Shown here one piece after another: positions 2,343 to 38,646 of a stretch of 64,000 nt of DNA (position 1 is the stretch's first letter; each line of letters opens with the position of its first letter). A model generated the notes under the pieces. It had not been told where the DNA came from. It searched no databases and worked only from the letters and a program-made list of their open reading frames with translations. Where the stretch lies: the sequence record PX880103.1; one strand, 5' to 3'. Position numbers and translations under genes: made by a program. The DNA is from a phage.

Positions 2343-4322
2343 ATGACTTTATTATCTCCGGGCATTGAGCTCAAAGAAACTACGGTTCAAAGCACCGTGG
2401 TTAATAACTCTACTGGTACAGCAGCTTTGGCCGGTAAATTCCAGTGGGGTCCTGCTTTTCAGATTAAACAGGTTACAAATGAAGTAGATTTAGTTAATAC
2501 TTTTGGTCAACCAACCGCTGAAACTGCTGACTATTTTATGTCTGCGATGAATTTCTTGCAGTACGGAAATGACTTACGAGTAGTTCGTGCTGTTGATAGA
2601 GATACCGCTAAAAACTCATCACCAATCGCCGGTAATATTGAATACACAATTTCTACCCCAGGTAGTAACTATGCGGTTGGAGATAAAATCACGGTCAAAT
2701 ATGTTTCAGATGATATTGAAACTGAAGGTAAAATTACTGAAGTAGACGCAGATGGAAAAATTAAGAAAATTAATATTCCTACTGCAAAAATTATCGCTAA
2801 AGCGAAAGAAGTCGGTGAATATCCAACACTAGGTTCTAACTGGACTGCGGAAATTTCTTCATCTTCCTCTGGTTTAGCTGCAGTAATAACTCTTGGAAAA
2901 ATTATTACTGATTCTGGTATTTTATTAGCTGAAATTGAAAATGCTGAAGCTGCTATGACAGCGGTTGACTTTCAAGCAAATCTTAAAAAATATGGAATTC
3001 CAGGAGTAGTAGCGCTTTATCCAGGAGAATTAGGCGATAAAATTGAAATTGAAATCGTATCTAAAGCTGACTATACAAAAGGAGCTTCTGCATTACTCCC
3101 AATTTATCCAGGTGGTGGTACTCGTGCATCTACTGCCAAGGCAGTGTTTGGGTATGGACCGCAAACTGATTCACAGTACGCTATTATAGTTCGTCGCAAT
3201 GATGCTATTGTTCAAAGCATTGTTCTTTCAACTAAGCGTGGTGAAAAAGATATTTACGATAGTAACATCTATATCGATGACTTTTTCGCAAAAGGTGGCT
3301 CAGAATATATTTTTGCAACTGCACAAAACTGGCCAGAAGGCTTCTCTGGAATTTTAACTCTGTCTGGTGGATTATCATCAAATGCTGAAGTATCAGCAGG
3401 AGATTTGATGGAAGCTTGGGACTTCTTTGCTGACCGTGAATCCGTTGATGTTCAACTGTTTATTGCAGGTTCTTGTGCCGGTGAATCTTTAGAAACAGCA
3501 TCTACTGTCCAAAAACACGTCGTTTCAATTGGGGATGCTCGCCAAGATTGCTTAGTATTGTGCTCTCCTCCACGTGAAACTGTAGTTGGAATTCCTGTAA
3601 CTCGTGCAGTAGATAACTTAGTCAATTGGAGAACCGCAGCAGGTTCATACACTGATAATAACTTTAATATCAGTTCAACCTACGCAGCAATTGATGGTAA
3701 CTACAAGTATCAGTATGACAAATATAATGATGTGAATCGTTGGGTTCCATTAGCAGCTGATATTGCTGGTTTATGCGCAAGAACTGATAACGTTTCTCAT
3801 ACTTGGATGTCTCCAGCTGGTTATAATCGTGGCCAGATTCTTAACGTTATTAAACTTGCTATTGAAACTCGCCAAGCTCAGCGCGACCGTTTATATCAAG
3901 AAGCTATTAACCCGGTAACTGGTACAGGTGGTGATGGTTACGTATTGTATGGTGATAAAACAGCTACTTCTGTTCCTTCTCCATTTGATCGTATTAACGT
4001 TCGTCGTCTGTTTAATATGTTGAAAACGAATATCGGACGTAGTTCAAAATATCGTTTGTTCGAATTAAACAACGCGTTTACTCGTTCATCATTCCGCACA
4101 GAAACTGCCCAGTACTTGCAGGGAATTAAAGCTCTCGGTGGAATTTATGAATATCGTGTAGTTTGCGATACAACAAATAACACTCCGTCAGTAATTGATA
4201 GAAATGAGTTTGTTGCAACATTCTACATCCAACCGGCGCGCAGTATAAATTATATTACTTTGAATTTCGTCGCAACTGCTACCGGCGCAGATTTCGATGA
4301 GTTAACTGGTCTTGCAGGTTAA
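2343..4322 (+). CDS. 18: contractile tail sheath protein gp18
   Basis: 659 aa as in T4 gp18; TATAAATA late promoter upstream; synteny. Confidence 0.95.
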   Translation: MTLLSPGIELKETTVQSTVVNNSTGTAALAGKFQWGPAFQIKQVTNEVDLVNTFGQPTAETADYFMSAMNFLQYGNDLRVVRAVDRDTAKNSSPIAGNIEYTISTPGSNYAVGDKITVKYVSDDIETEGKITEVDADGKIKKINIPTAKIIAKAKEVGEYPTLGSNWTAEISSSSSGLAAVITLGKIITDSGILLAEIENAEAAMTAVDFQANLKKYGIPGVVALYPGELGDKIEIEIVSKADYTKGASALLPIYPGGGTRASTAKAVFGYGPQTDSQYAIIVRRNDAIVQSIVLSTKRGEKDIYDSNIYIDDFFAKGGSEYIFATAQNWPEGFSGILTLSGGLSSNAEVSAGDLMEAWDFFADRESVDVQLFIAGSCAGESLETASTVQKHVVSIGDARQDCLVLCSPPRETVVGIPVTRAVDNLVNWRTAAGSYTDNNFNISSTYAAIDGNYKYQYDKYNDVNRWVPLAADIAGLCARTDNVSHTWMSPAGYNRGQILNVIKLAIETRQAQRDRLYQEAINPVTGTGGDGYVLYGDKTATSVPSPFDRINVRRLFNMLKTNIGRSSKYRLFELNNAFTRSSFRTETAQYLQGIKALGGIYEYRVVCDTTNNTPSVIDRNEFVATFYIQPARSINYITLNFVATATGADFDELTGLAG

Positions 4323-26754: not shown

Positions 26755-26784
26755 ATTATAACACAACATAAGGAACTTGTAAAC
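26755..26784 (-). promoter_or_regulatory. early-type promoter (-35 GTTTAC, 18-nt spacer, -10 TATAAT) for the alt.-3-position ORF
   Basis: Minus strand reads GTTTAC ... TATAAT, then GAGGAA RBS and ATG. Confidence 0.55.
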
Positions 26785-28841
26785 TACATTTTGAACTTTT
26801 TAGACATTCCGTTGATGTTAACCAAAGAAGCTAAGATTTGAGAAACTTCGTTTTCCTCTTCTTTTGATTCTTCTACAAGGAATTGATTAAATCCAGCCAT
26901 TGGACGAACTTCACCAGTTTCCATTAAATGGTCGCCATCATATACTGATTCTTCTAATTGTTCAGAAGGAGGAACGATTGTACCTTCGATTAGATACTTG
27001 TTATAAGCAGTTTCTTTCATAAAGTACGTACTTACTTTATTAATCTTCAGTAAAATTCCACGCGGTAGAATAACTTCAGCTTCTGATGGAAATCCTGATA
27101 AATGACCTGGAACGATAACTTTGATTCGCTCAGCTCCTTTAATTACCATACCCACTCTAGTTTCAGCATCTTCATTAGCGTATGTAGAATGACTACCCAT
27201 ATGCATCAAATCTTCTGCATCAACGGAACCTTCTCCTTCACCAGAAAATACTGCACCGGAATCATCTAGAGCCATATAGTTTTTACCATGCTCGCCGAAG
27301 ATATTTGGTTTAAGTGATGTCGATACGAAGTTCTTGAAATAGAACATTTTGTTTTCAATGTTATGACGCAAAGTTTTAAAGGTAACTTCTTGTCCACGGT
27401 AAAGTGTAGTTCCTGGAGGAAGAACTGATCCTTTGGCAAAGGCAGAATCCAACGTCTCGATGTGCTTAATAGCTCGTTCCATGTATTCTTCACGAGTAGA
27501 ATCTGGTTTACCCAAAAGGAACGAGTTCATTTCAACATATGAATCTGCACAATAATCTTCAATTACATCAGATTCAGCTTGAGTTAATCCTTTTGGAGTT
27601 ACTTCAGTACTTGCGTATTCATATGCCTGGGCAGCAGATTCATTAATCAATTTATAAATGCCATTCATGACGAATTGAATAATAGCTGTCTTTTCATCTG
27701 GCGTGGCTTTAGAACCTTTAACTAAATCATTAATAATTTTCTTAATAACATCAAAGCTATTAGAAATATTAATGTCAGCAAGATCGCTTAAAATTTTATC
27801 AGTTTTATAATCAAAGAATTCTTTATTCTTTAAATATTCTTGAGAACCTTGATATGTTATATCACTCTGCAACTTGATAGATGGATCACGTAAACGCGCA
27901 TGGGCCAATGCGATATGATTTCGGAAGTTTTCTAGTTCATAATCGCTAGATTTAAAACGAGAAGCACTCCTCATACCACCAATAGCTCCTTTGCTGAAGT
28001 TTGAACCAATCTGGATAACGCCAGAGTTCATTGGACCTTCTGCTTTATATACCGGAACTTTAGATTCAAACTCTTGATATTTCTTGGCAGCGAAGCTATC
28101 ACCCTGAAGTGAAGCATCGACAGTAGAATATTGAGCTTGTGCTGCTAATCGACGACTAATTTTAGTTTTCTGAATAACAGCTTGATCAGTGCGCTTATCA
28201 TTTTCTAAAGCAATAGAAGCAGCAACAGCGACAGCTTTAGGAACAGCATCACCTGTTTTAACATCTACATAAACATCACCGACCTTTGATTCAACTTTTG
28301 TGAATAACTCAGTTGAAATAGGAGGTACACCTGGAATGTCTTCTAAATTGGCATTTTTACGGTAAACCATAATATATGCATATTTCTTATCATAATCCCA
28401 GATTTCCTTTAAAAGAACATATCGACCTGCTCCTTTAGTACGTACTAAACGGTCAGCAATAACTTGCATTTGACGAGCTGCGCCATTTGTTTTACTTTTT
28501 AGCACACGGAACAAACACGCGTCAATTTTATACTGCTTCATTGTTTGAAGAGCAGTATCAAAAACAGCATTAATGACGCCAATTGGATTTCCACCCAAGT
28601 TTTTAAGCTTAACTAGTGATAATTTCTCGTTGACACCTATCATTACGATATGCATCATTTTATCGCCTGGCTTAACGTTTTTATTTGTATCACCACCAGA
28701 GGTGTATGTACAAAATCTAAATCCAGGAAGCACGCTTTCTTCACCGGCTTGAATAGCAAAAATTTGAGGTATTTTATGCTTAGGATTTAAGTTAACAACC
28801 GGCGCCGAAGCGCCGTCAAATAATTCTGTAATAAGTTCCAT
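26784..28841 (-). CDS. Alt-like ADP-ribosyltransferase, paralog A
   Basis: 685 aa; N-terminal MELITELFD; ART triad context YRGQ, FVSTSL, EAEVILPRG. Confidence 0.85.
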   Translation of the reverse strand: MELITELFDGASAPVVNLNPKHKIPQIFAIQAGEESVLPGFRFCTYTSGGDTNKNVKPGDKMMHIVMIGVNEKLSLVKLKNLGGNPIGVINAVFDTALQTMKQYKIDACLFRVLKSKTNGAARQMQVIADRLVRTKGAGRYVLLKEIWDYDKKYAYIMVYRKNANLEDIPGVPPISTELFTKVESKVGDVYVDVKTGDAVPKAVAVAASIALENDKRTDQAVIQKTKISRRLAAQAQYSTVDASLQGDSFAAKKYQEFESKVPVYKAEGPMNSGVIQIGSNFSKGAIGGMRSASRFKSSDYELENFRNHIALAHARLRDPSIKLQSDITYQGSQEYLKNKEFFDYKTDKILSDLADINISNSFDVIKKIINDLVKGSKATPDEKTAIIQFVMNGIYKLINESAAQAYEYASTEVTPKGLTQAESDVIEDYCADSYVEMNSFLLGKPDSTREEYMERAIKHIETLDSAFAKGSVLPPGTTLYRGQEVTFKTLRHNIENKMFYFKNFVSTSLKPNIFGEHGKNYMALDDSGAVFSGEGEGSVDAEDLMHMGSHSTYANEDAETRVGMVIKGAERIKVIVPGHLSGFPSEAEVILPRGILLKINKVSTYFMKETAYNKYLIEGTIVPPSEQLEESVYDGDHLMETGEVRPMAGFNQFLVEESKEEENEVSQILASLVNINGMSKKFKM

Positions 28842-28844
28842 GAT

Positions 28845-30941
28845 TTATCCTTGAACGAACTTGTAAGGCATGTTTGTAATATCTATGCAAGACGCAATAA
28901 TTCCAAGAGATGATTCTACTTTCTGTTTAACATTTGATGAAACAAATGATGCAAAGTCAACTCTGTCTTCTATTTCAATATCACCTGTCGTTGTAACTAC
29001 TTCGCCGGTTTCCATTAGACGGTCACCGTCATAAATTACCGATTCGGTGAGTTCTTCCGTGGTCATAACTTCAGCTTGAATGAGTTTTGTATTATTAGAC
29101 GTGGTTCCGTCATTATTAGAAGCATCAGTTATTTTATTAACTTTGACCATCAATCCGCGCGGTAGAATAACTTCAGCTTCTGTTGCTATTCCGAGACTTC
29201 CTGGATATACAACATTAACTTTATGAGCTCCATCAATTGCCCATCCTATTTGAACTTTAACGTATTCAGGATTTTCTTTATACGCTCTTATTTCGTTTGG
29301 ATTAATAGTTATTCCTTCTTCATTTTTATCAACTGTTAATTCATTGCGAGCTTCTGGTTCTAAAAGACCAATACCAGCATGTGTAATTCCAAAACGTCCA
29401 AAAATGATAGGAGTTAAAGAAGTAGATACAAAATTTCTGAAATAGAACACTTTATTTTTAACTAGTGCTTCGTATATAGGAGCAGTCATACTTTGAGCAC
29501 GATAAACTGTAATGCCTTCCGGTATGCGGTCACCATTTTCAAAAGCTGAATCTAAATTATTTATAGCAGATTCAATTTCTTTTTCACTCATTACATCATA
29601 TCGTTCTGGATTGTAACGACCTAAAAGAAGATTATTAATGTCTGTATATCCTGAGCCACAATATTCTCTAATGCCGCGCTTTTGTGATGGAGTATATTTA
29701 GAACCATCACGAGCAATAGTAATATCAATCATTGGACCAGCACCAATTCCAGAAAAACTATAAATCATTCGTTTGAGGAATTTAGTTTTTGCTGCATTCC
29801 AGGCATTTTTAGTTATTTCTTCCCAGACTTCATCTGACTGACCTTTACGAGTTTTATTATGTTTATCAAGCCAATTATCTTTATATTCTTCAAAGAATTG
29901 ATTAACAGCTGCTGCGTATTTCTCTAAACATTTTATTGAAGTAGTTGGTTCATTTTTAATCGCATTAAGAATTACATCTTTAATTTTTTCAGAAACTTCA
30001 TTAACCTCACTTTTTGAAAAGAATTTATAATCATAGTGAAGTTCATCTGCAGTTCCTTCGGCAATAATTTTTGCTGCCTTAGTTTTAGAAGCTAATGAAT
30101 TAATTCCAAGCTTCATTTCTTCTGCTTCGGGAATTAAAGGAGCAGTAGCAGGTTTATTGAAATTAGCTGCGGTAGATTCATACTTCTGGAATAATTCACT
30201 TTCAAATCTAGAAGATTCCAATGACTGACTTTGTGCAATTGCTCTACGGGAAATTTTAACTTTAACGATTACAGCTTGGTCAGAACGTTTATCATTTTCT
30301 TGTGCAATAGATGCTGCAATTGCCTCATTTTTAGTTACTTGAGCTCCGGTATCTTTATTGATATAAACATCACCGACCTTCGATTCAACTTTAGTAAAGA
30401 GCTCGGTACTAATTTCCGGAACTCCTGGAATGTCTTCTAGTGATACATTTTTGCGATGTATAAGAATATATGCATACTTTTTATCGTAATCCCAGAGTTC
30501 CTTAAGAAGGACGTATCTACCACCTGAACGACTACGGATAAGTCTATCAGCAATAACTTGAATTTGTCGAGCTTGGCCAGCAGTTTTAGACTTAAGAATA
30601 CGGAGCATACAGGCATCAATTTTATACTGACGCATCGTTTGCATTGCAACAGTAAAAACTGAATTGATATAATTAATTGGGCTTGGACCAAGACCTTTTA
30701 ATTTAGCAATTGAACCTTTAGCAGTTAATGTAAAAGGAACAATATGCATCATTTTATCGCCCATTTTTAAATCGCGATTAGTATCACCTCCAGATGTATA
30801 GGTACATAAACGAAAGCCTGGTTGTTCAATTGCATCATCAACGTGAACTGAAAAAATTTGCGGTATTTTCTTCTTTGGATTTAAGTTTGTAATCGGAAGA
30901 GTAGTATCTTCGTCAAATAATTCTGTAATGAGTTCCATCAT
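28845..30941 (-). CDS. alt: Alt-like ADP-ribosyltransferase, paralog B (probable Alt ortholog)
   Basis: 698 aa; N-terminal MMELITELFD; YRAQ, FVSTSL, EAEVILPRG; late promoter upstream; adjacent to gene 30. Confidence 0.85.
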   Translation of the reverse strand: MMELITELFDEDTTLPITNLNPKKKIPQIFSVHVDDAIEQPGFRLCTYTSGGDTNRDLKMGDKMMHIVPFTLTAKGSIAKLKGLGPSPINYINSVFTVAMQTMRQYKIDACMLRILKSKTAGQARQIQVIADRLIRSRSGGRYVLLKELWDYDKKYAYILIHRKNVSLEDIPGVPEISTELFTKVESKVGDVYINKDTGAQVTKNEAIAASIAQENDKRSDQAVIVKVKISRRAIAQSQSLESSRFESELFQKYESTAANFNKPATAPLIPEAEEMKLGINSLASKTKAAKIIAEGTADELHYDYKFFSKSEVNEVSEKIKDVILNAIKNEPTTSIKCLEKYAAAVNQFFEEYKDNWLDKHNKTRKGQSDEVWEEITKNAWNAAKTKFLKRMIYSFSGIGAGPMIDITIARDGSKYTPSQKRGIREYCGSGYTDINNLLLGRYNPERYDVMSEKEIESAINNLDSAFENGDRIPEGITVYRAQSMTAPIYEALVKNKVFYFRNFVSTSLTPIIFGRFGITHAGIGLLEPEARNELTVDKNEEGITINPNEIRAYKENPEYVKVQIGWAIDGAHKVNVVYPGSLGIATEAEVILPRGLMVKVNKITDASNNDGTTSNNTKLIQAEVMTTEELTESVIYDGDRLMETGEVVTTTGDIEIEDRVDFASFVSSNVKQKVESSLGIIASCIDITNMPYKFVQG

Positions 30942-30993: not shown

Positions 30994-31179
30994 ATAATCT
31001 ATTGGTAAGAGAGTACGATATATTTCAAACTTTGGACCTTTTTCATAAGCATCAAAAGTTTCTGTGAATTTATTATAAGCATATGCATCTATAAATTCAA
31101 GCATGATTTGTGATACAGAAGTAGAAACATCTCCACCTTCTTTTTGAGCCACGACAATTGTTTCTAAGTAAGCTTTCAT
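30991..31179 (-). CDS. hypothetical small protein
   Basis: 62-aa ORF between gene 30 and alt; hairpin terminator at its 3' end. Confidence 0.5.
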   Translation of the reverse strand: MKAYLETIVVAQKEGGDVSTSVSQIMLEFIDAYAYNKFTETFDAYEKGPKFEIYRTLLPIDY

Positions 31180-32639
31180 AGACCAGTTACCTCATGAAAA
31201 TCACCAAATACATCCTCGAATGTATTAGCTTTAGTTTTATCTTCACGCAAACGAATCGCAATTGGAAGAAATAATTTAACGTAATCAGTGCGGCCATCAG
31301 ATTTTAACCAACCGTTGCATTCGCACTCTAGAATTTTTCCAATATAATAATTTTGGTTTTCCATAATGCGAGTACGGTCAAGTTCATGTGATTTTACGCC
31401 GGCTTTATCTTTTAAGCCTGAACCAGCATTTACTTTAATTTTTCCACACTCTGACTCAAGAATAAATCCACCTGCTTTAGTAGGGTCTTTACGGTGAGGA
31501 TAAATTCCTACAATTTTTAAATCAACATCAATTACTTCTTTAAATTTATAGAGATTTTTTGAACGAGCATTTTCCCATAATCCATCGATATTTTTGAGAA
31601 TAATACCTTCAAGACCTTGGTCAATATACTTTTTATAAATTACCTTAGCTTCATCTAGGTTATTTACTACCTGGTTTTCAATTAAAATTACTTTATCATA
31701 GCCTGATGTCATTTGTTCTAGTTTAGAAAAACGTACATCATATTTTAAACGAAATGCTGGAAGACCGTATATTTCTACCAACGGGACATAATCCCAGACC
31801 TGAAACTTCATGCATTGAGCTTCTTTTTCAGAAATGGTTCCCTTTAAAGATTTATTGGCGATGCCATTAGATGCAGTACGTGATTCAGCTACTTCTGCGA
31901 AGTCTTTAACTTTACTGTTTTCAGGATGAGCATCAAAAAGAAAATCTAGGCCTTCTGGCTCCTTTTTAACTTGCTCATGGTATACCAATTCGCCATCAAT
32001 TAACACACCTTCTGGATGAATCTGGCGAGCTTCAGCAGTCATTTTGATTAATTCTTCCTTAAGAAGATCTAATCCTAGATATTCATTACCAGCTCGTGAT
32101 AAAAGACGAACATCATCTAATTCATCACCTCTGACTTCAGCAAAGCACCGAGCCCCATCAGCTTTTAACTGGGCAAAGGCTGGAAATTTGATATTCTTAT
32201 TAATGCCTTTTTCATCATAAGAACTTGCAAGCATTTGAGGTTGTTCAGGAATTAAACCTGGCCAAACTTTGTTTGCAATAGATACTGAAGCACCACATTC
32301 AAGGTCTCGCATCATCACTCGACGCAAAACTTCAACATCATCTTTTTTACCATCGGTGATGTATCCAGTTAATTCCTCAATTGCCGCATTTCCAGTCAAT
32401 TTCCGAGTAGCTAACGTGAATTCAATGAAGTCAAGCATATCGGTAAGAGTCAACATTCCAAAACTCTGGGTAGCAATACCAGGTTTAGGCCATTTCTTGA
32501 TATAATACTGCAACCCACGAGAATAAGTCAGACGATATACTCGTTTAAGCAATTCATTATCTTTATTCTTTTCAAGAATTGCTTGCTTCTGCTTAGTTGA
32601 ACCAATAGATGCTATTTCGTTCAGAATTTTAAGAATCAT
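31176..32639 (-). CDS. 30: ATP-dependent DNA ligase gp30
   Basis: 487 aa as in T4 DNA ligase; adenylation-site lysine in AQLKADGARCF. Confidence 0.95.
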   Translation of the reverse strand: MILKILNEIASIGSTKQKQAILEKNKDNELLKRVYRLTYSRGLQYYIKKWPKPGIATQSFGMLTLTDMLDFIEFTLATRKLTGNAAIEELTGYITDGKKDDVEVLRRVMMRDLECGASVSIANKVWPGLIPEQPQMLASSYDEKGINKNIKFPAFAQLKADGARCFAEVRGDELDDVRLLSRAGNEYLGLDLLKEELIKMTAEARQIHPEGVLIDGELVYHEQVKKEPEGLDFLFDAHPENSKVKDFAEVAESRTASNGIANKSLKGTISEKEAQCMKFQVWDYVPLVEIYGLPAFRLKYDVRFSKLEQMTSGYDKVILIENQVVNNLDEAKVIYKKYIDQGLEGIILKNIDGLWENARSKNLYKFKEVIDVDLKIVGIYPHRKDPTKAGGFILESECGKIKVNAGSGLKDKAGVKSHELDRTRIMENQNYYIGKILECECNGWLKSDGRTDYVKLFLPIAIRLREDKTKANTFEDVFGDFHEVTGL

Positions 32640-32905
32640 TGTTCATCCTTTAGAGTTTGGTTTACAGCTCTATTATAAATCAATTCATCATTAAGCTCAG
32701 TCAAAGACCTATGGTACGTGGTTCTAACTTTATTTCCTTGCATCCAATGCTTGACGTAAATGAAACCTTGCTCTACACATTTTTTAAAAATTCGTTCGTC
32801 TTTTTGAGCTCGGAATTCTGGATTGCATCTAAAAAATTGATTTACGTGACCATAATCACGTGTAGTATTACCTTCATTTTCATAAATAGTGTGAACGACA
32901 AACAT
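32636..32905 (-). CDS. hypothetical protein (30.1 position)
   Basis: 89-aa ORF, translationally coupled. Confidence 0.6.
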   Translation of the reverse strand: MFVVHTIYENEGNTTRDYGHVNQFFRCNPEFRAQKDERIFKKCVEQGFIYVKHWMQGNKVRTTYHRSLTELNDELIYNRAVNQTLKDEQ

Positions 32906-33768
32906 TAGAATGCTCCTTGGAAAATATTATCACCACTAGTAATTCTATTAAAATACCCTGCGTCGCCAGGCTTAATATAACTCCACGTATGGAATGGATT
33001 CATATGATATAGATGTGTATAATATGGATTATATGGATGTGTATAATATGGATGATATGGATTTAATCCAGGAGTTCTCCATGTAGTATTTTGGCGAAAA
33101 GAATCGTTTTTAACCATCTTCTCAATTACATCTTTTATAGCTTTTTCACTATCAAAACTTTCTTTATTTTCCTTCGGCGAAAAAAGCTTATTTTCTACAT
33201 CATTCCATGTATAAACTCGCTGAGCAGTTTTTGGAATATTGTCACGCTCTCCTCGAGCCATCCAATAAACTGGAACATTTAATATTTCACTCGCATGATC
33301 GCAGTGGTGAGCGAGATCGTCAATATAACAAATTACGTTATATTTCTCTTTTGCCTTTTTGAACAACTCTTCTTTTGAAGAATCATGACCACACATCATT
33401 ACTTCTGAGAAGGCACCAGGAAAAAGAGCATTCAAATTAAATTGACGATTCAACAGAGCGTCAATAGAATCACCCAATGCTGTAACAGCTACAAAATTAT
33501 AATCTTCTTTTAATTTGTTAATTACACACAGGGCATCTTTATATGGAGACAAGTAACGAATAAAATCCGAACGATTGTATTTTTCAATTAACTTGACGCC
33601 AAGTTCTTCATCACAGTTAAAGAGTTTACCAGGAGAAATAAATTTCTCATCCTGGATCATTTTTAAAATATGTTCTAACGGAAGATTATATTTCTGAGCA
33701 AAATAAGGAAGGCCTGATTGCCAGCTTAAACATACTCCATCAATATCAGTTAAAATAGTAGGCTTCAT
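32905..33768 (-). CDS. HAD-superfamily hydrolase-like protein with Tyr/His/Pro-rich repeat tail (30.2 position)
   Basis: 287 aa; N-terminal ILTDIDGV (HAD motif I); C-terminal NPYHPYYTHPYNPYYTHLY encoded by a 2-copy direct DNA repeat. Confidence 0.7.
   Translation of the reverse strand: MKPTILTDIDGVCLSWQSGLPYFAQKYNLPLEHILKMIQDEKFISPGKLFNCDEELGVKLIEKYNRSDFIRYLSPYKDALCVINKLKEDYNFVAVTALGDSIDALLNRQFNLNALFPGAFSEVMMCGHDSSKEELFKKAKEKYNVICYIDDLAHHCDHASEILNVPVYWMARGERDNIPKTAQRVYTWNDVENKLFSPKENKESFDSEKAIKDVIEKMVKNDSFRQNTTWRTPGLNPYHPYYTHPYNPYYTHLYHMNPFHTWSYIKPGDAGYFNRITSGDNIFQGAF
32979..33024. repeat. two-copy tandem direct repeat (~24 bp) inside the 3' end of the HAD-like gene
   Basis: GATGTGTATAATATGGATTATA TG GATGTGTATAATATGGATGATA; encodes the Y/H/P-rich C-terminal tail. 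Confidence 0.7.
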
Positions 33769-34229
33769 AAAGAGTCTCTTAATAGGTTTAACACATCAAT
33801 AAATTCAGCTTCGGTTAGTATTGTATCATCTTTTGTTAGACCACTAGCCATGCTGTGCTTCAAAACTTTTCCTTTCGAGGCTTGTAATGCATCACGAAAG
33901 CCCCTGTTTTGGAACGCTGCTTCAAAATATGCATTTGTGTATAATTCTTTCCACGCCGGGGAGTATCTTGAAAACGGAACTCCAAGCCAGAACAACGTGC
34001 CACGATCCTGAGCTCTAGCATAAGACCTTCCAGCTTGTTGGGCGGCAAGCCCGGATAACCCAAATATACGACGTTGCTGTTCAACATTTTTCACCTTACA
34101 CCCTTGGAGGAATCCTTCGAGACCTCCAAATTGAATGCCATCCATAACGAAAGGCCATTGGGCGAAATTACTTAATGCACATGATGGCCATTTAAAATTG
34201 CTTCTTATCTCTAGCTCAGACATTTTCAA
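33765..34229 (-). CDS. NADAR/YbiA-family protein (30.3 position)
   Basis: 154 aa; SCALSNFAQWPFVMDG...F..G.KV resembles the E. coli YbiA core DFSNFAAWP..DG..W...EH.FQAQKF. Confidence 0.65.
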   Translation of the reverse strand: MKMSELEIRSNFKWPSCALSNFAQWPFVMDGIQFGGLEGFLQGCKVKNVEQQRRIFGLSGLAAQQAGRSYARAQDRGTLFWLGVPFSRYSPAWKELYTNAYFEAAFQNRGFRDALQASKGKVLKHSMASGLTKDDTILTEAEFIDVLNLLRDSL

Positions 34230-34422
34230 TACTTATAATTTCAACATCAGCCCAATGACCATAGCAAGGAAGACGAAATTCAACTGGCCAGTTAGGGTCC
34301 TTTTCTAATATAATAGACTGAACTTGTGGCTCTTCATATTCATCGGTATACGGACCTTTATACGTTACTTTATATGTGACCTTAATGTACTTAATTCCAA
34401 AAATCTTATTAATTATATTCAT
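34216..34422 (-). CDS. hypothetical small protein (30.x)
   Basis: 68-aa ORF in a coupled chain. Confidence 0.5.
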   Translation of the reverse strand: MNIINKIFGIKYIKVTYKVTYKGPYTDEYEEPQVQSIILEKDPNWPVEFRLPCYGHWADVEIISIENV

Positions 34423-34616
34423 ACTAATTCCTTTAATCCGTAAATAGGAGATAATTCATCGCCCATACGAAGGTCTTCATTTCCATCTACCCAGGAAACA
34501 ATATAAGCCTCTTTTATTTGAATACCACTCCATTTAAATGGAGGTAGAACCTTAGAAATTAATCCAGGTATACCAACTCCCTTTAATTCAACAGTTTGAC
34601 CTAAAAAGAATTTCAT
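34419..34616 (-). CDS. hypothetical small protein (30.x)
   Basis: 65-aa ORF in a coupled chain. Confidence 0.5.
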   Translation of the reverse strand: MKFFLGQTVELKGVGIPGLISKVLPPFKWSGIQIKEAYIVSWVDGNEDLRMGDELSPIYGLKELV

Positions 34617-34903
34617 TAGAACCTCATCTGAAAGCCATGCGATTTAACATTACCGCCGCCAATATCAGAAATATTAATTTCACGCGCAATTGAAGGGTCA
34701 ATGTCAATTTCACGATTGAGTTTAGTGATAGCTAAAGTATCGCGCCCATTTACAGTACGGAACTCTAAAGGACATACTACATTAACGTAGTTTTTAATCG
34801 ATTCGCTGGTAGGTTGCAAATGAGCAGGAAGGTCTTTAGGCGCCTTAGAGAAAACCACTTCACAGAAATTTTTGCGGGTATCAAAATAAGTAGTCATAAA
34901 CAT
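34616..34903 (-). CDS. hypothetical protein (30.x)
   Basis: 95-aa ORF; hairpin 34919-34934 upstream. Confidence 0.55.
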   Translation of the reverse strand: MFMTTYFDTRKNFCEVVFSKAPKDLPAHLQPTSESIKNYVNVVCPLEFRTVNGRDTLAITKLNREIDIDPSIAREINISDIGGGNVKSHGFQMRF

Positions 34904-34944
34904 AGTATTTTCCTCAGTAAGGGGCCGAAGCCCCTCATTTTATT

Positions 34945-35310
34945 TTAAATATCAAATTCGTTAAGAACTACATCAAAGATTGCTTCAAGATGCTCAGGTT
35001 TAACTCTGTTACTCAGAATATGACGAATCCAAGTTTTAACCAGAAGCTTGCGATTAACGCCATTCCAGCAAGGATGAGTCCCTAAATCACGTTGACGAAA
35101 ATCATCATCCAAAGCGATTTTGAAGTTGGAACCTTTCATTGTGATTGAAACCGTGATGCCATTTTCAAATCGCATATAAACGTAGTTAGGAGTCATATAC
35201 TGTTCAATTTCGCATACTGATCCATTTTGATGTTTCCAAAGGCAAATAGTATCAATAGAACCTGCAATACCATTAGAAACATATTTACGTTCAAAGTTGA
35301 TGTAGTTCAT
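34945..35310 (-). CDS. hypothetical protein (30.x)
   Basis: 121-aa ORF; early-type promoter in 35311-35378. Confidence 0.55.
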   Translation of the reverse strand: MNYINFERKYVSNGIAGSIDTICLWKHQNGSVCEIEQYMTPNYVYMRFENGITVSITMKGSNFKIALDDDFRQRDLGTHPCWNGVNRKLLVKTWIRHILSNRVKPEHLEAIFDVVLNEFDI

Positions 35311-35378
35311 TTTTATTCTCCGAGATGTTTAATTGCGGTACAGGTATATAATATCATATCCTGTACCAAAGTAAACAA

Positions 35379-35711
35379 TTATTTTACTACTTTCCAGTGC
35401 TGCATGTCAAGTTTACCAACTTTTTTCATCTTCTCAATTAAGCGTTCTGCGCGTTGGCGAGCTGTAACATAATGCCATTCACCTAATTCATTTTGTTCAA
35501 TTTTTCCAACGATTACTGTATTCAATTCATAAATCCAACCAGTAAAGAAATTATGAACTTGAATTGTAAAGGTGAAATCTGTTCCCATACCTTCTGTTGT
35601 TTCTACTTCAATAATATCACCTTCAACTGCCATTAAGAACCACATAGTTTCATCATATTTACCGTTGAAGCATTTAGTTTTAACTGCAGCGTTCAGATTA
35701 ATTGTTTTCAT
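35379..35711 (-). CDS. hypothetical protein (30.x)
   Basis: 110-aa ORF; early-type promoter 35734-35768. Confidence 0.55.
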   Translation of the reverse strand: MKTINLNAAVKTKCFNGKYDETMWFLMAVEGDIIEVETTEGMGTDFTFTIQVHNFFTGWIYELNTVIVGKIEQNELGEWHYVTARQRAERLIEKMKKVGKLDMQHWKVVK

Positions 35712-35733
35712 TTTATTCTCCTTTGTTTGTGTA

Positions 35734-35768
35734 AGATAATACTATCACAAAGGAACTATACTGTAAAC
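35734..35768 (-). promoter_or_regulatory. early-type promoter candidate (GTTTAC -35)
   Basis: GTTTACAG on minus strand with an AT-rich -10 about 17 nt downstream. Confidence 0.4.
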
Positions 35769-35797
35769 AACTTTGTGCAATCTTTGGAAAATAAAAA

Positions 35798-35817
35798 AGG
35801 ACTCCCGAAGGAGTCCT
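35798..35817 (-). terminator. terminator hairpin downstream of the 30.9-position ORF
   Basis: AGGACTCC-CGAA-GGAGTCCT; minus-strand RNA followed by UUUUUUAUUUU. Confidence 0.6.
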
Positions 35818-35821
35818 CAAC

Positions 35822-35998
35822 TTATGCTTTCTGCTTACCAAAACGAGAAGCATCATCTCGAAGAACCGCACGTGCTCGGCGCATGATCTTCTCAACAGTT
35901 TGATTGATACGAGAGTTCGACCCACGCTTGTAACCAGCGCGTTTAGAATCACCAACTTTCTTTTCAACTGCTTTCTTTGCTTTAGCTTGTTTTGCCAT
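35822..35998 (-). CDS. small basic protein (30.9 position)
   Basis: Track ORF 35822-36040; internal ATG at 35998 gives 58 aa MAKQAKAKKAVEKK...; terminator hairpin just downstream. Confidence 0.5.
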   Translation of the reverse strand: MAKQAKAKKAVEKKVGDSKRAGYKRGSNSRINQTVEKIMRRARAVLRDDASRFGKQKA

Positions 35999-36396
35999 TA
36001 TAAATTCTCTTTTAAATGAAAATGCAGGACTTATTGGCATTGCCTGCGCAAGCCCTCAAGGGGAACATAGGTTTTTGGATATTTAACGACCAGGATAACC
36101 ATAAACCCGTCATCATACCTTATAGCTCTTATCTGTTGCACACCGTTAGCTTAAAGGTTCCGGGTTCGATTTCTCGAGGATAAGATATATACTGATGGAT
36201 ATATAGGCCTTGAGGCGTACTCCCGATTGGCCATCACCTCGGGGTAGCATGCACTTGCCGCTATAAGAATAACATTCAAGAGGTACACCGTAAAACTGCC
36301 GGGGTCTTAAAACTATAATGATTCGCAAATCATTAATCAGACAGTTCGACGGCTCCTCGTTTTAACTTCACACTAAGGCAGTGACTCTCCAATAAA

Positions 36397-36645
36397 TTAC
36401 TTCAGTGTTACCACAAAGTGACGAACTGCTTTTCGTGCAGCAGAAGCCAGAGGCTTAGCATATTTAAGTTCATCTTTTTCCTGAAGCTCAGCAGCTAGTG
36501 CAGTTTGAGCAGGATTCAGATGTTTGAAATAACGCAGGATTTCAAGAGCTTCGGCTTCAACATCAATAGATGCGCCATAGTTTTCGTGACCATTATTCCA
36601 TGCGTTTCGTTGCAGTTCAAGAGCGTGTTGTAATTGTTTAATCAT
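36397..36645 (-). CDS. rIII: rIII lysis-inhibition accessory protein
   Basis: 82 aa as in T4 rIII; immediately downstream of gene 31. Confidence 0.85.
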   Translation of the reverse strand: MIKQLQHALELQRNAWNNGHENYGASIDVEAEALEILRYFKHLNPAQTALAAELQEKDELKYAKPLASAARKAVRHFVVTLK

Positions 36646-36784
36646 TTAAAAATTCTCATTAGAGATTAAAACTCAGTAGTCACGTTCTTCTGAATTTCAC
36701 TTCCTTTCGGCAAGTCTCTCAGTTGTAGACTACCACATAGAATTGTTCGGTTAACTTATTATTCCGACACCCAATTCATATTAT

Positions 36785-36792
36785 TATTTATA
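36785..36792 (-). promoter_or_regulatory. candidate late promoter (minus strand) upstream of rIII
   Basis: Plus-strand TATTTATA just 3' of the gene 31 stop. Confidence 0.4.
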
Positions 36793-37128
36793 TCACTTAT
36801 AAAGACACGGAATAGCTTTATAGTGACAGGTAACGAATTTTTGTTTAATTTCTTTTGGCTGCTTAAGACCCAGAGCTACAAAAGGATGCGGAACATTTCG
36901 AATTTGACCAACTGGAAGAGAAGTCAAATCGCCAACTTCGCAGAAACCTTTAGGAACATCAGGACCGACAGAGTGAACTACACACAGTTCAGGAACTTCA
37001 CCTTGGACACGTTTACCAATAATAAGTCCTGATTCTGTAACTTCTTCATCACCGGCTTGTGCAGGTTCAGAAACTAAAATAACATATTCACCGACAGCAC
37101 TAATTGGTAGCTGTTGTACTTCAGACAT
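36793..37128 (-). CDS. 31: gp31 co-chaperonin (GroES analogue)
   Basis: 111 aa as in T4 gp31; synteny. Confidence 0.9.
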
Positions 37129-37184
37129 CGTTTTTCCTTTTTGTTAACAGATGAATTAATAATAACAAATAATTCTTAAAGCAT

Positions 37185-37493
37185 TTATTTACCAATAAAT
37201 TGGAGTAAATGCTCAACTTTCATACCATTAACGGAAATCAATTTGTCAATAGAAAAACCTCGCCATGCACCAAGCTCAACATCAAATACTGGAATCATGT
37301 CAGTAGATTCTTTCCGAGTAGATTCAGTCAATTTGCCAGTTTGCATGGTTGGCATAAAGTCTGCATCACGAGTACCTTTCATAGTACGAATAGTACCATC
37401 AGACTTTTCAAAAACTACGTTTGAAACACCCATGGACAATTTAGTTTTCAAAATTTCACGAATTGCTACTTTCTGCTCAGTTGTCAGTTTCAT
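37185..37493 (-). CDS. hypothetical protein (31.1 position)
   Basis: 102-aa ORF. Confidence 0.6.
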   Translation of the reverse strand: MKLTTEQKVAIREILKTKLSMGVSNVVFEKSDGTIRTMKGTRDADFMPTMQTGKLTESTRKESTDMIPVFDVELGAWRGFSIDKLISVNGMKVEHLLQFIGK

Positions 37494-37730
37494 TTATTTA
37501 CCTATTACAGTTTTAATATGAGTTGTTCCACGTTCTTTAAGGGTGGAAAGTAATTTTTGGCATTTTTCTAAATCAGATTTCCAACTATATGGTTTATCAA
37601 TACAAACCCAATTTGTCTTATAATACTGTTTCCATTTAGAGAAAAAATATTTCTTATACTCTACAGCAAATGAGATGTTCTCGTTAGAATAAGAACTAAT
37701 TGCTGTGAGCTTTACTAAACGAAATTTCAT
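37494..37730 (-). CDS. hypothetical protein (31.2 position)
   Basis: 78-aa ORF. Confidence 0.55.
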   Translation of the reverse strand: MKFRLVKLTAISSYSNENISFAVEYKKYFFSKWKQYYKTNWVCIDKPYSWKSDLEKCQKLLSTLKERGTTHIKTVIGK

Positions 37731-38311
37731 TATTCACCACAGAATTCGTTGATATTTTCCCAGTTTAACTTATTCAAGTTTTTCTTAGGAACATTAAACA
37801 CTTCAATACCTGCATTTCGCAGAATATCATCCCAGCCAGGTTTATTTTTATCGTATGTTTCGCAATAAACCAGCTTTTTAATACCAGATTGAGCTATCGC
37901 TTTTGCGCAATCTGGACAGGGAGAAAGTGTTACATACATAGTAGCACCTTCAATAGAAGAACCATTTCGTGCAGCAAACAAAATTGCATTTAGTTCAGCA
38001 TGAATTTCATTTTTAGATGACCATTCCGAGTGAGCACTACGATGTTCTTTCGCCAAAACAAAACGATCAGTTGAACCAAATGATACGCATTCAGGCTTAT
38101 GACCTTGAATGATAGTATGTTTAGGCTTATTCAACAACCAACCTTGCTCAGCAGCATAATCACAACAGTTCACACCCCCTGCGGGTGAACCGTTATATCC
38201 AGTAGAAATAATACGTCCATTCTTTTCAATTACTGCTCCTACCTTCCAGGAGCAACATTTTGATTCCTGCGATACTAAATATGCAATTTGAAGTACTGTA
38301 CTCGCTTTCAT
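37730..38311 (-). CDS. cd: dCMP deaminase
   Basis: 193 aa as in T4 Cd; zinc-binding HAE...PCPDC cytidine/dCMP deaminase motifs. Confidence 0.92.
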   Translation of the reverse strand: MKASTVLQIAYLVSQESKCCSWKVGAVIEKNGRIISTGYNGSPAGGVNCCDYAAEQGWLLNKPKHTIIQGHKPECVSFGSTDRFVLAKEHRSAHSEWSSKNEIHAELNAILFAARNGSSIEGATMYVTLSPCPDCAKAIAQSGIKKLVYCETYDKNKPGWDDILRNAGIEVFNVPKKNLNKLNWENINEFCGE

Positions 38312-38646
38312 TTCATAATCACCAGATAAGCAGATTTAGCAGTTTCAACACGATAAATTTCGTGACGAAGTTTAGTTATACTTTTAATAACAGAACTAAT
38401 TATATTCTGCCCATCTTTAAAGCGGTTTTTCTTATCAATAAAAACCGCGCCAGTCATCTTTTTGTGAAGCTCAACTGGATACTTCGTCACAATAATTGCA
38501 TCATACACAGAAGGATGAATACTATTCACCAGAATATCATTCATTAAAGTTATTCTAATGAACTGTGCTGTTTCAGAATCAAGCGCTCTATGATCGCCAG
38601 TATCATTTTCAAGACAATTATCAATTATATCAGTTAAATTCATCAT
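38308..38646 (-). CDS. hypothetical protein (cd.x)
   Basis: 112-aa ORF coupled to cd. Confidence 0.55.
   Translation of the reverse strand: MMNLTDIIDNCLENDTGDHRALDSETAQFIRITLMNDILVNSIHPSVYDAIIVTKYPVELHKKMTGAVFIDKKNRFKDGQNIISSVIKSITKLRHEIYRVETAKSAYLVIMK

Follow-up and report, generated by a model that had tools for sequence, protein, structure and literature searches.

A near-T4 allele of adfN (gene 30.3) in a Tequatrovirus genome, predicted to encode a NADAR-fold counter-defence enzyme against DarTG1

We analysed a stretch of 64,000 nucleotides of phage DNA (record PX880103.1; the window in the following) and, with a probability of about 93%, assign its minus-strand gene at 33765-34223 as a Tequatrovirus allele of adfN (T4 gene 30.3), encoding a 152-aa, core-only N-glycosidase of the NADAR fold that counters DarTG1. 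The identity of the gene, the fold of its product, the relevant residues, the intactness of the allele and its genomic context are established here. The anti-DarTG1 function of such a NADAR protein is already known, and the window gene is an intact, near-T4 allele. The annotation adfN is thus warranted for this gene; most of the listed related records label their match ‘hypothetical protein’.

The first-pass annotation had described a 154-aa product at 33765-34229. The open reading frame is real and lies on the minus strand, which the first-pass annotation had not specified, and the ORF list gives it 154 codons if it is counted from a TTG, whereas the length that we assign is shorter by two codons. 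Around the start, the frame of gene 30.4, which lies upstream, gives ...AGT ATT GAA AAT GTC TGA, and that of adfN gives ATG TCT GAG. Because the TTG falls inside the 30.4 codons ATT-GAA, a length of 152 aa is preferable. The T4 orthologue is annotated from the same ATG (459 nt, 152 aa) and overlaps the stop codon of 30.4 by 8 nt, while full-length database homologues are about 150-152 aa long and mostly begin at ATG. The product is therefore most likely the 152-aa protein and not a 154-aa one; the codons TTG and AAA probably lie outside the translated sequence, the TTG being an extension made by the ORF finder within 30.4. As to the T4 protein, the methods of one study (PMC11125620) list its construct as ‘residues 1-208’ against the 152 aa that the T4 gene encodes, which is probably a typographical error or a count that includes a tag. 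The coordinates of the gene, of its functional elements and of the neighbouring genes are collected in Table 1.

Table 1. Location of adfN, its predicted functional elements and related genes in the window (residues in 152-aa numbering)
Feature	Coordinates	Strand	Details
adfN (T4 gene 30.3) CDS	33765..34223	-	ATG start at 34223; 152 aa + stop; 459 nt in the T4 annotation; PF08010, E=3e-69
Extra codons TTG AAA behind the 154-aa length	34224..34229	-	sequence reads ...AGTATTGAAAATGTCTGAG; TTG inside the 30.4 codons ATT-GAA
N-terminal NADAR core motif, residues 17-43 (LSNFAQWPFVMDGIQFGGLEGFLQGCK)	34095..34175	-	aligns with YbiA in profile-versus-PDB searches
Catalytic Glu36, codon GAA	34116..34118	-	invariant in alignments A1-A3 and A5
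Lys43, codon AAG, ADP-ribose-contacting residue	34095..34097	-	at least 90% conserved
His123, codon CAC, last beta-strand, signature of the phage gp30.3 subgroup	33855..33857	-	at least 90% conserved; strand 120-123 in the model
C-terminal alpha-helix, residues 138-152	33768..33812	-	helix 138-151 in the model; identical to T4
Gene 30.2, predicted HAD-fold NT5C-like phosphatase	32905..33768	-	287 aa; ATGA overlap with adfN
Gene 30.4	34216..34422	-	68 aa; 8-nt overlap of its stop with the adfN start (ATGTCTGA)
Alt-type ADP-ribosyltransferase paralogues	26784-28841 and 28845-30941	-	685 and 698 aa; both PF03496; 41% identical end to end

The window belongs to a Tequatrovirus (T4-like) genome, in which the 2-kb stretch around adfN is 96-98% identical to many other genomes of this genus. 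Gene order follows T4 completely, with two alt copies, alt.1, 30 (ligase), 30.1, 30.2, 30.3, 30.4 through 30.9, rIII, 31 and cd, so the 30.x cluster setting described in the initial reading holds. The gene lies within a tightly packed same-strand run from 30.7 to 30, and its stop codon overlaps the start of 30.2 (ATGA). A scan of 31000-38500 for promoters and terminators gave match counts that did not exceed those of shuffled controls. With respect to alt, T4 carries one copy together with alt.-1 and alt.-2, the degraded remains of a duplicate, and the window phage keeps an intact second copy.

In the Pfam search, the window protein matched PF08010 (Phage_30_3) alone, with E=3e-69 and 231.5 bits against a gathering cut-off of 36, and PF08719 (NADAR) was not matched. 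The corresponding PHROGs family is phrog_652, which has no annotated function, and homologues of gp30.3 occur in 1,511 phage records; together with the PF08010 score, this places the ORF and its motif far beyond chance. A single-sequence phmmer search of the PDB returned nothing relevant. With a family profile of nine sequences, the top match was Escherichia coli YbiA, at a borderline E=0.06, and a profile of 59 diverse members, drawn from 1,454 family clusters, reached YbiA at E=9.8e-4 in an alignment that spans exactly the catalytic motif. Cross-matches to PF08719 below threshold were found in 10/59 and 12/74 relatives (best E 1.2e-6), and the missing direct match reflects a split between Pfam families that does not contradict homology. 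A Pfam search for NADAR had been proposed earlier as a check on the gene; it returned PF08010 and not PF08719, and a plain search of this kind, if read literally as a refutation test, would have misled, so that remote-homology and structural methods were needed.

The structural comparison was decisive. The AlphaFold2 model of AdfN (pLDDT 89.2, pTM 0.86) has the alpha+beta fold of YbiA, in which small beta-hairpins flank a core of about five helices. Foldseek matched it to YbiA (2b3w, E=1e-4), the NADAR protein of G. lovleyi (8bat) and that of P. nicotianae (8bau), all at a probability of at least 0.99, while the remaining matches had probabilities of at most 0.06, leaving the three solved NADAR structures as the only credible ones. 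As modelled, AdfN is a member of the NADAR superfamily, in the separately curated phage gp30.3 subgroup. The proposal of a NADAR/YbiA-like protein is thus borne out by structure comparison, by family profile and by conserved catalytic residues alike.

Outside the T4-like phages, gp30.3-type NADAR domains also occur as tandem repeats with two to three copies per protein, and as fusions to BspA-type LRR (three cases), ASCH (three) and NT5C (two) domains, with single cases of a GDSL lipase and an alpha/beta hydrolase (relatives with unusual architectures: P0023, P0024, P0096, P0103, P0122, P0050, P0083).

The YbiA/NADAR core motif noticed in the sequence is present at residues 17-43, where LSNFAQWPFVMDGIQFGGLEGFLQGCK aligns with FSNFAAWPIKVDGKTWPTSEHYFQAQK of E. 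coli YbiA, including the SEHYFQAQK part of the latter. Among the 59 diverse members, no variation occurs at N19 or E36, and L17, S18, L39, Q40 and K43 are conserved in at least 90%. The literature assigns to the last-strand position a Glu in YbiA, an Asp in the DarT1-associated NADARs (DarG1) and a His in the phage gp30.3 NADARs; the window protein has His123 there in place of Glu or Asp, and it retains the full-length C-terminal helix (residues 138-152) that also characterises the phage subgroup. A loss of catalytic residues had been named as an outcome that would speak against the assignment, and E36, K43 and H123 are all intact. The protein is 97.4% identical to T4 gp30.3, from which it differs by K11R, F104I, R107K and M125I alone. 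All four substitutions are conservative and lie away from the catalytic residues, and several relatives further away (P0003, P0008, P0009) likewise have Met125. Judged from the alignments, no functional change is expected from them.

These positions have been probed in T4 AdfN (PMC11825919), where E36A abolishes activity in vitro and weakens function in vivo and K43A is impaired as well, with both variants keeping partial rescue in vivo. In the same study, phage RB69 was found to be sensitive to DarTG1 and to carry an adfN frameshift that removes the last 15 residues, largely the C-terminal helix, and truncation of T4 AdfN at the RB69 position reduced its activity. Since the window allele is intact, unlike that of RB69, the phage is predicted to be resistant to DarTG1.

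A second ORF of 75 aa (33860-34087, minus strand, Pfam DUF2883, E=4e-48) lies wholly within adfN in a different frame; it is the counterpart of 30.3', which is annotated in T4 as an ‘internal translation in a different reading frame’. Truncated close relatives of adfN (86-120 aa) are numerous in the databases (P0007, P0012, P0013, P0015, P0016, P0021), and two of them combine PF08010 and DUF2883 in one polypeptide, a frameshift having carried the reading over into the frame of 30.3'. Among T-even phages, natural alleles that have lost their function, as in RB69, may be common.

The function of the T4 orthologue has been described in several studies. Schuller et al. (2023) reported that NADARs reverse guanine ADP-ribosylation and pointed out a phage subgroup. 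In vitro, T4 gp30.3 was found in a 2024 study to hydrolyse G-ADPr and not T-ADPr (PMC11125620), and according to a 2026 study it does not remove cytidine-ADPr. Johannesman et al. (2025; PMC11825919), who renamed gene 30.3 adfN, freed DarT1-modified DNA of ADPr with the purified T4 enzyme. They also found that deletion of adfN makes T2 and T4 sensitive to DarTG1 and that ectopic adfN rescues RB69, making the gene necessary and sufficient for growth of T2, T4 and RB69 on DarTG1 hosts; a two-hybrid assay gave no interaction between AdfN and DarT1. The HIDEN-SEQ transposon screen agrees with these results, with T4 30.3/adfN being dispensable on E. coli K-12 and lost on DarTG1 hosts, where it ranks first among the conditionally essential T4 genes (log2FC -7.25, adjusted p about 0). 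Reversal of DarT-type guanine ADP-ribosylation as counter-defence, which the first-pass annotation had put forward as plausible, has thus been demonstrated in the literature for the 97%-identical T4 orthologue. The enzymology and phenotype are taken from T4, and by analogy the window allele would behave in the same way.

On a DarTG1 host, DarT1 would ADP-ribosylate guanines of the phage DNA at N2 and so block replication, and AdfN would hydrolyse the guanine-ADP-ribose bond and restore unmodified DNA. It would act without binding the toxin and would be an analogue of the antitoxin DarG1, encoded by the phage as an orphan. Catalysis would proceed via Glu36 and Lys43, with His123 presumably replacing the Glu of YbiA or the Asp of DarG1, and full activity would need the C-terminal helix. 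Translation of adfN is probably coupled to that of 30.4.

T4 AdfN does not neutralise DarT1 in uninfected E. coli (PMC11825919; PMC11125620), and it rescues non-T-even phages weakly, being fully effective only in T-even infections (PMC11825919). The simple picture of a free-standing glycohydrolase is therefore incomplete, and an additional T-even factor or context is needed; the restriction to T-even infections was taken by Johannesman et al. to imply such a factor (PMC11825919). The published screen bears on both immediate neighbours of adfN, and provides two small leads on the T-even helper through the depletion of 30.4 on DarTG1 hosts and the exclusion of 30.2.

According to the HIDEN-SEQ Extended Data Table 6 (sheet S6), exactly two T4 genes are significant on DarTG1, namely adfN and 30.4. 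The depletion of 30.4 (log2FC -1.79, adjusted p 0.014) is not discussed in the text of the preprint. In the window, the overlap of the 30.4 stop with the adfN start suggests translational coupling, and no Shine-Dalgarno-like sequence is visible upstream of the adfN ATG. As 30.3 homologues in other phages likewise overlap whichever gene is upstream, the depletion is most simply and most probably explained by polarity or by a loss of translational coupling, with adfN as the gene affected. Gene 30.4 is also confined to T-even-type phages (696 records versus 1,511 for 30.3). As a candidate for the T-even-specific helper, or potentiator, of AdfN(T4), gp30.4 ranks below polarity and is an unlikely one.

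The product of gene 30.2 gave no match in the Pfam search. The alignment of its family contains the four HAD motifs, in which D8-x-D10, K132 and D150-D151 are invariant and T96 is near-invariant; all four are intact in the window protein, and the only PDB match of the family profile was the 5'(3')-deoxyribonucleotidase 2jao. Its model is confident over residues 1-200, with a disordered Pro/Tyr/His-rich C-terminal tail (about 225-287); the protein is longer than that of T4 (287 versus 278 aa), the tail length being different. Foldseek matched the model to 115 PDB chains at E<=1e-3; the 50 listed are all HAD-fold enzymes or engineered proteins on a HAD scaffold, and among the matches listed, the best target-normalised TM-scores were obtained with deoxyribonucleotidases. 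From motifs and model, gp30.2 is probably an active, divergent NT5C-like phosphatase.

A role of gp30.2 as the required AdfN helper would fit with the ATGA overlap of 30.2 and adfN, with the metagenomic relatives P0033 and P0040, in which the gp30.3 domain is fused to NT5C, and with KP27 and phiAS5, where 30.2 is kept within about 0.5 kb of 30.3. In the Vibrio phage vB_ValM_R11Z (L005, KVP40-like; 2507-3458), moreover, a canonical gene for an NT5C 5'(3')-deoxyribonucleotidase (Pfam E=3e-12) shares 23 nt with the 30.3 homologue, and the pair is located beside the exonuclease genes 47 and 46 and not beside the ligase gene. However, NT5C fusions account for 2/74 long relatives and are no commoner than LRR or ASCH fusions, the HAD domain of the fusions shows no more than a marginal relationship to the family of gp30.2 (hhalign probabilities of 43% and 0.5%), and in the phages examined the adjacency of 30.2 and 30.3 is absent outside Straboviridae. 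The idea is ruled out by HIDEN-SEQ: insertions in 30.2 were not depleted on DarTG1 (log2FC -0.12, p=0.61), so a requirement of AdfN for gp30.2 is effectively excluded and T4 30.2 is dispensable on DarTG1 hosts. Pairing of NADAR and nucleotidase nonetheless recurs, both in the fusions and in the overlap in vB_ValM_R11Z.

The same pairing bears on the nucleotide-salvage role that had been offered as an alternative to counter-defence. AdfN would then be an N-glycosidase of the YbiA type with a housekeeping or salvage function, and its substrates would be ribosylaminopyrimidine intermediates of the riboflavin pathway or nucleotides, in line with YbiA being its closest PDB match both by Foldseek and by sequence, with the NT5C-like nucleotidase predicted next to it, and with the two NADAR-NT5C fusions and the canonical Vibrio phage gene. 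We consider this role very unlikely, and found no support for it as an alternative. The last-strand Glu that defines YbiA is replaced in AdfN by His, the signature of the phage subgroup; in the published phylogeny the gp30.3 NADARs are closest to the DarG1 antitoxins and not to YbiA (PMC11825919); T4 can do without the gene on plain E. coli K-12, and a strong requirement for it arises only with DarTG1; and the fusions to NT5C are found in just the two of 74 long relatives.

A contextual prediction for phage NADARs made before 2023 (see Iyer et al.) holds that their main targets are soluble immune signals derived from ADP-ribose, or RNA-linked ADPr, and not DNA. NADARs including that of T4 do strip G-ADPr from RNA in vitro (2026 study), and fusions to ASCH, an RNA-binding domain, were found in 3/74 relatives. 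Against it stand the direct evidence for removal of ADPr from DNA and the DarTG1-specific phenotype (PMC11825919; HIDEN-SEQ), and no phenotype has been reported against other systems. As the main function of AdfN it is just as improbable as the salvage role; hydrolysis directed at such signals or RNA could be an additional rather than an alternative activity.

The Alt enzyme of T4 modifies protein arginine residues, whereas the characterised chemistry of NADARs concerns N-glycosidic base-ADPr. The two Alt transferases noted about 3 kb away are both present with PF03496 domains, the nearer one ending 2.8 kb from adfN, and the suggestion that AdfN balances or reverses ADP-ribosylation by these enzymes draws on their location in the same minus-strand block and on the early co-expression of T4-like NADARs with ARTs noted by Iyer et al.; it has a negligible probability, given the mismatch in chemistry, the ligase gene, 30.1 and 30.2 that intervene, the lack of a phenotype of the adfN deletion when DarTG1 is absent (PMC11825919; HIDEN-SEQ), and the other contexts of 30.3 in more distant phages, with no ART annotated in the flanks of about 2.5 kb examined. 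A functional tie between adfN and the Alt genes thus has nothing beyond proximity in its favour.

Reversal by AdfN of DarT1-type guanine ADP-ribosylation on phage DNA therefore remains our preferred reading, and the window gene confirms known biology, in which an orphan, antitoxin-like NADAR of T-even phages erases this modification. The closest known system is AdfN(T4) itself, T4 gp30.3 of PF08010, with which the window gene shares the length of 152 aa, the neighbours and overlaps, E36, K43 and H123, and the intact C-terminal helix, the two proteins differing by the four conservative substitutions. The DarG1 antitoxins (BC4488-type NADARs, such as those of G. lovleyi, 8bat, and E. coli C7) are encoded adjacent to a DarT1 gene, whereas adfN in the window is an orphan: its neighbours are 30.4, which belongs to no Pfam family, and the HAD-like 30.2, and the ARTs 3 kb off are of the Alt type (PF03496) and not DarT. 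DarG1 also has an N-terminal extension (8bat is 219 aa long) in contrast to the 152-aa, core-only AdfN, and carries Asp as its last-strand catalytic residue where AdfN has His123; in uninfected cells T4 AdfN cannot stand in for it (PMC11825919; PMC11125620).

E. coli YbiA (2b3w; COG3236/DUF1768), an N-glycosidase of riboflavin intermediates, is the best match to AdfN in sequence and in Foldseek, and shares with it the motif SNFA.WP..DG....E.F.Q..K and the hydrolysis of G-ADPr in vitro (PMC11125620). However, the two proteins are about 17-21% identical, and the last-strand Glu conserved in the YbiA family (E125-equivalent) is His123 in AdfN. Unlike adfN, ybiA is no counter-defence gene; it has a housekeeping role and belongs to an operon under LexA control. 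AdfN(Bas32) and AdfN(Bas60), from T5-like phages and Vequintavirinae, resemble AdfN(T4) in being orphan, guanine-ADPr-specific NADARs directed against DarTG1, although they come from other clades of NADARs and reached their phages through independent acquisitions; both are active in unrelated phages as well as in uninfected cells, in contrast to the T4-type protein, which is fully active in T-even infections only (PMC11825919).
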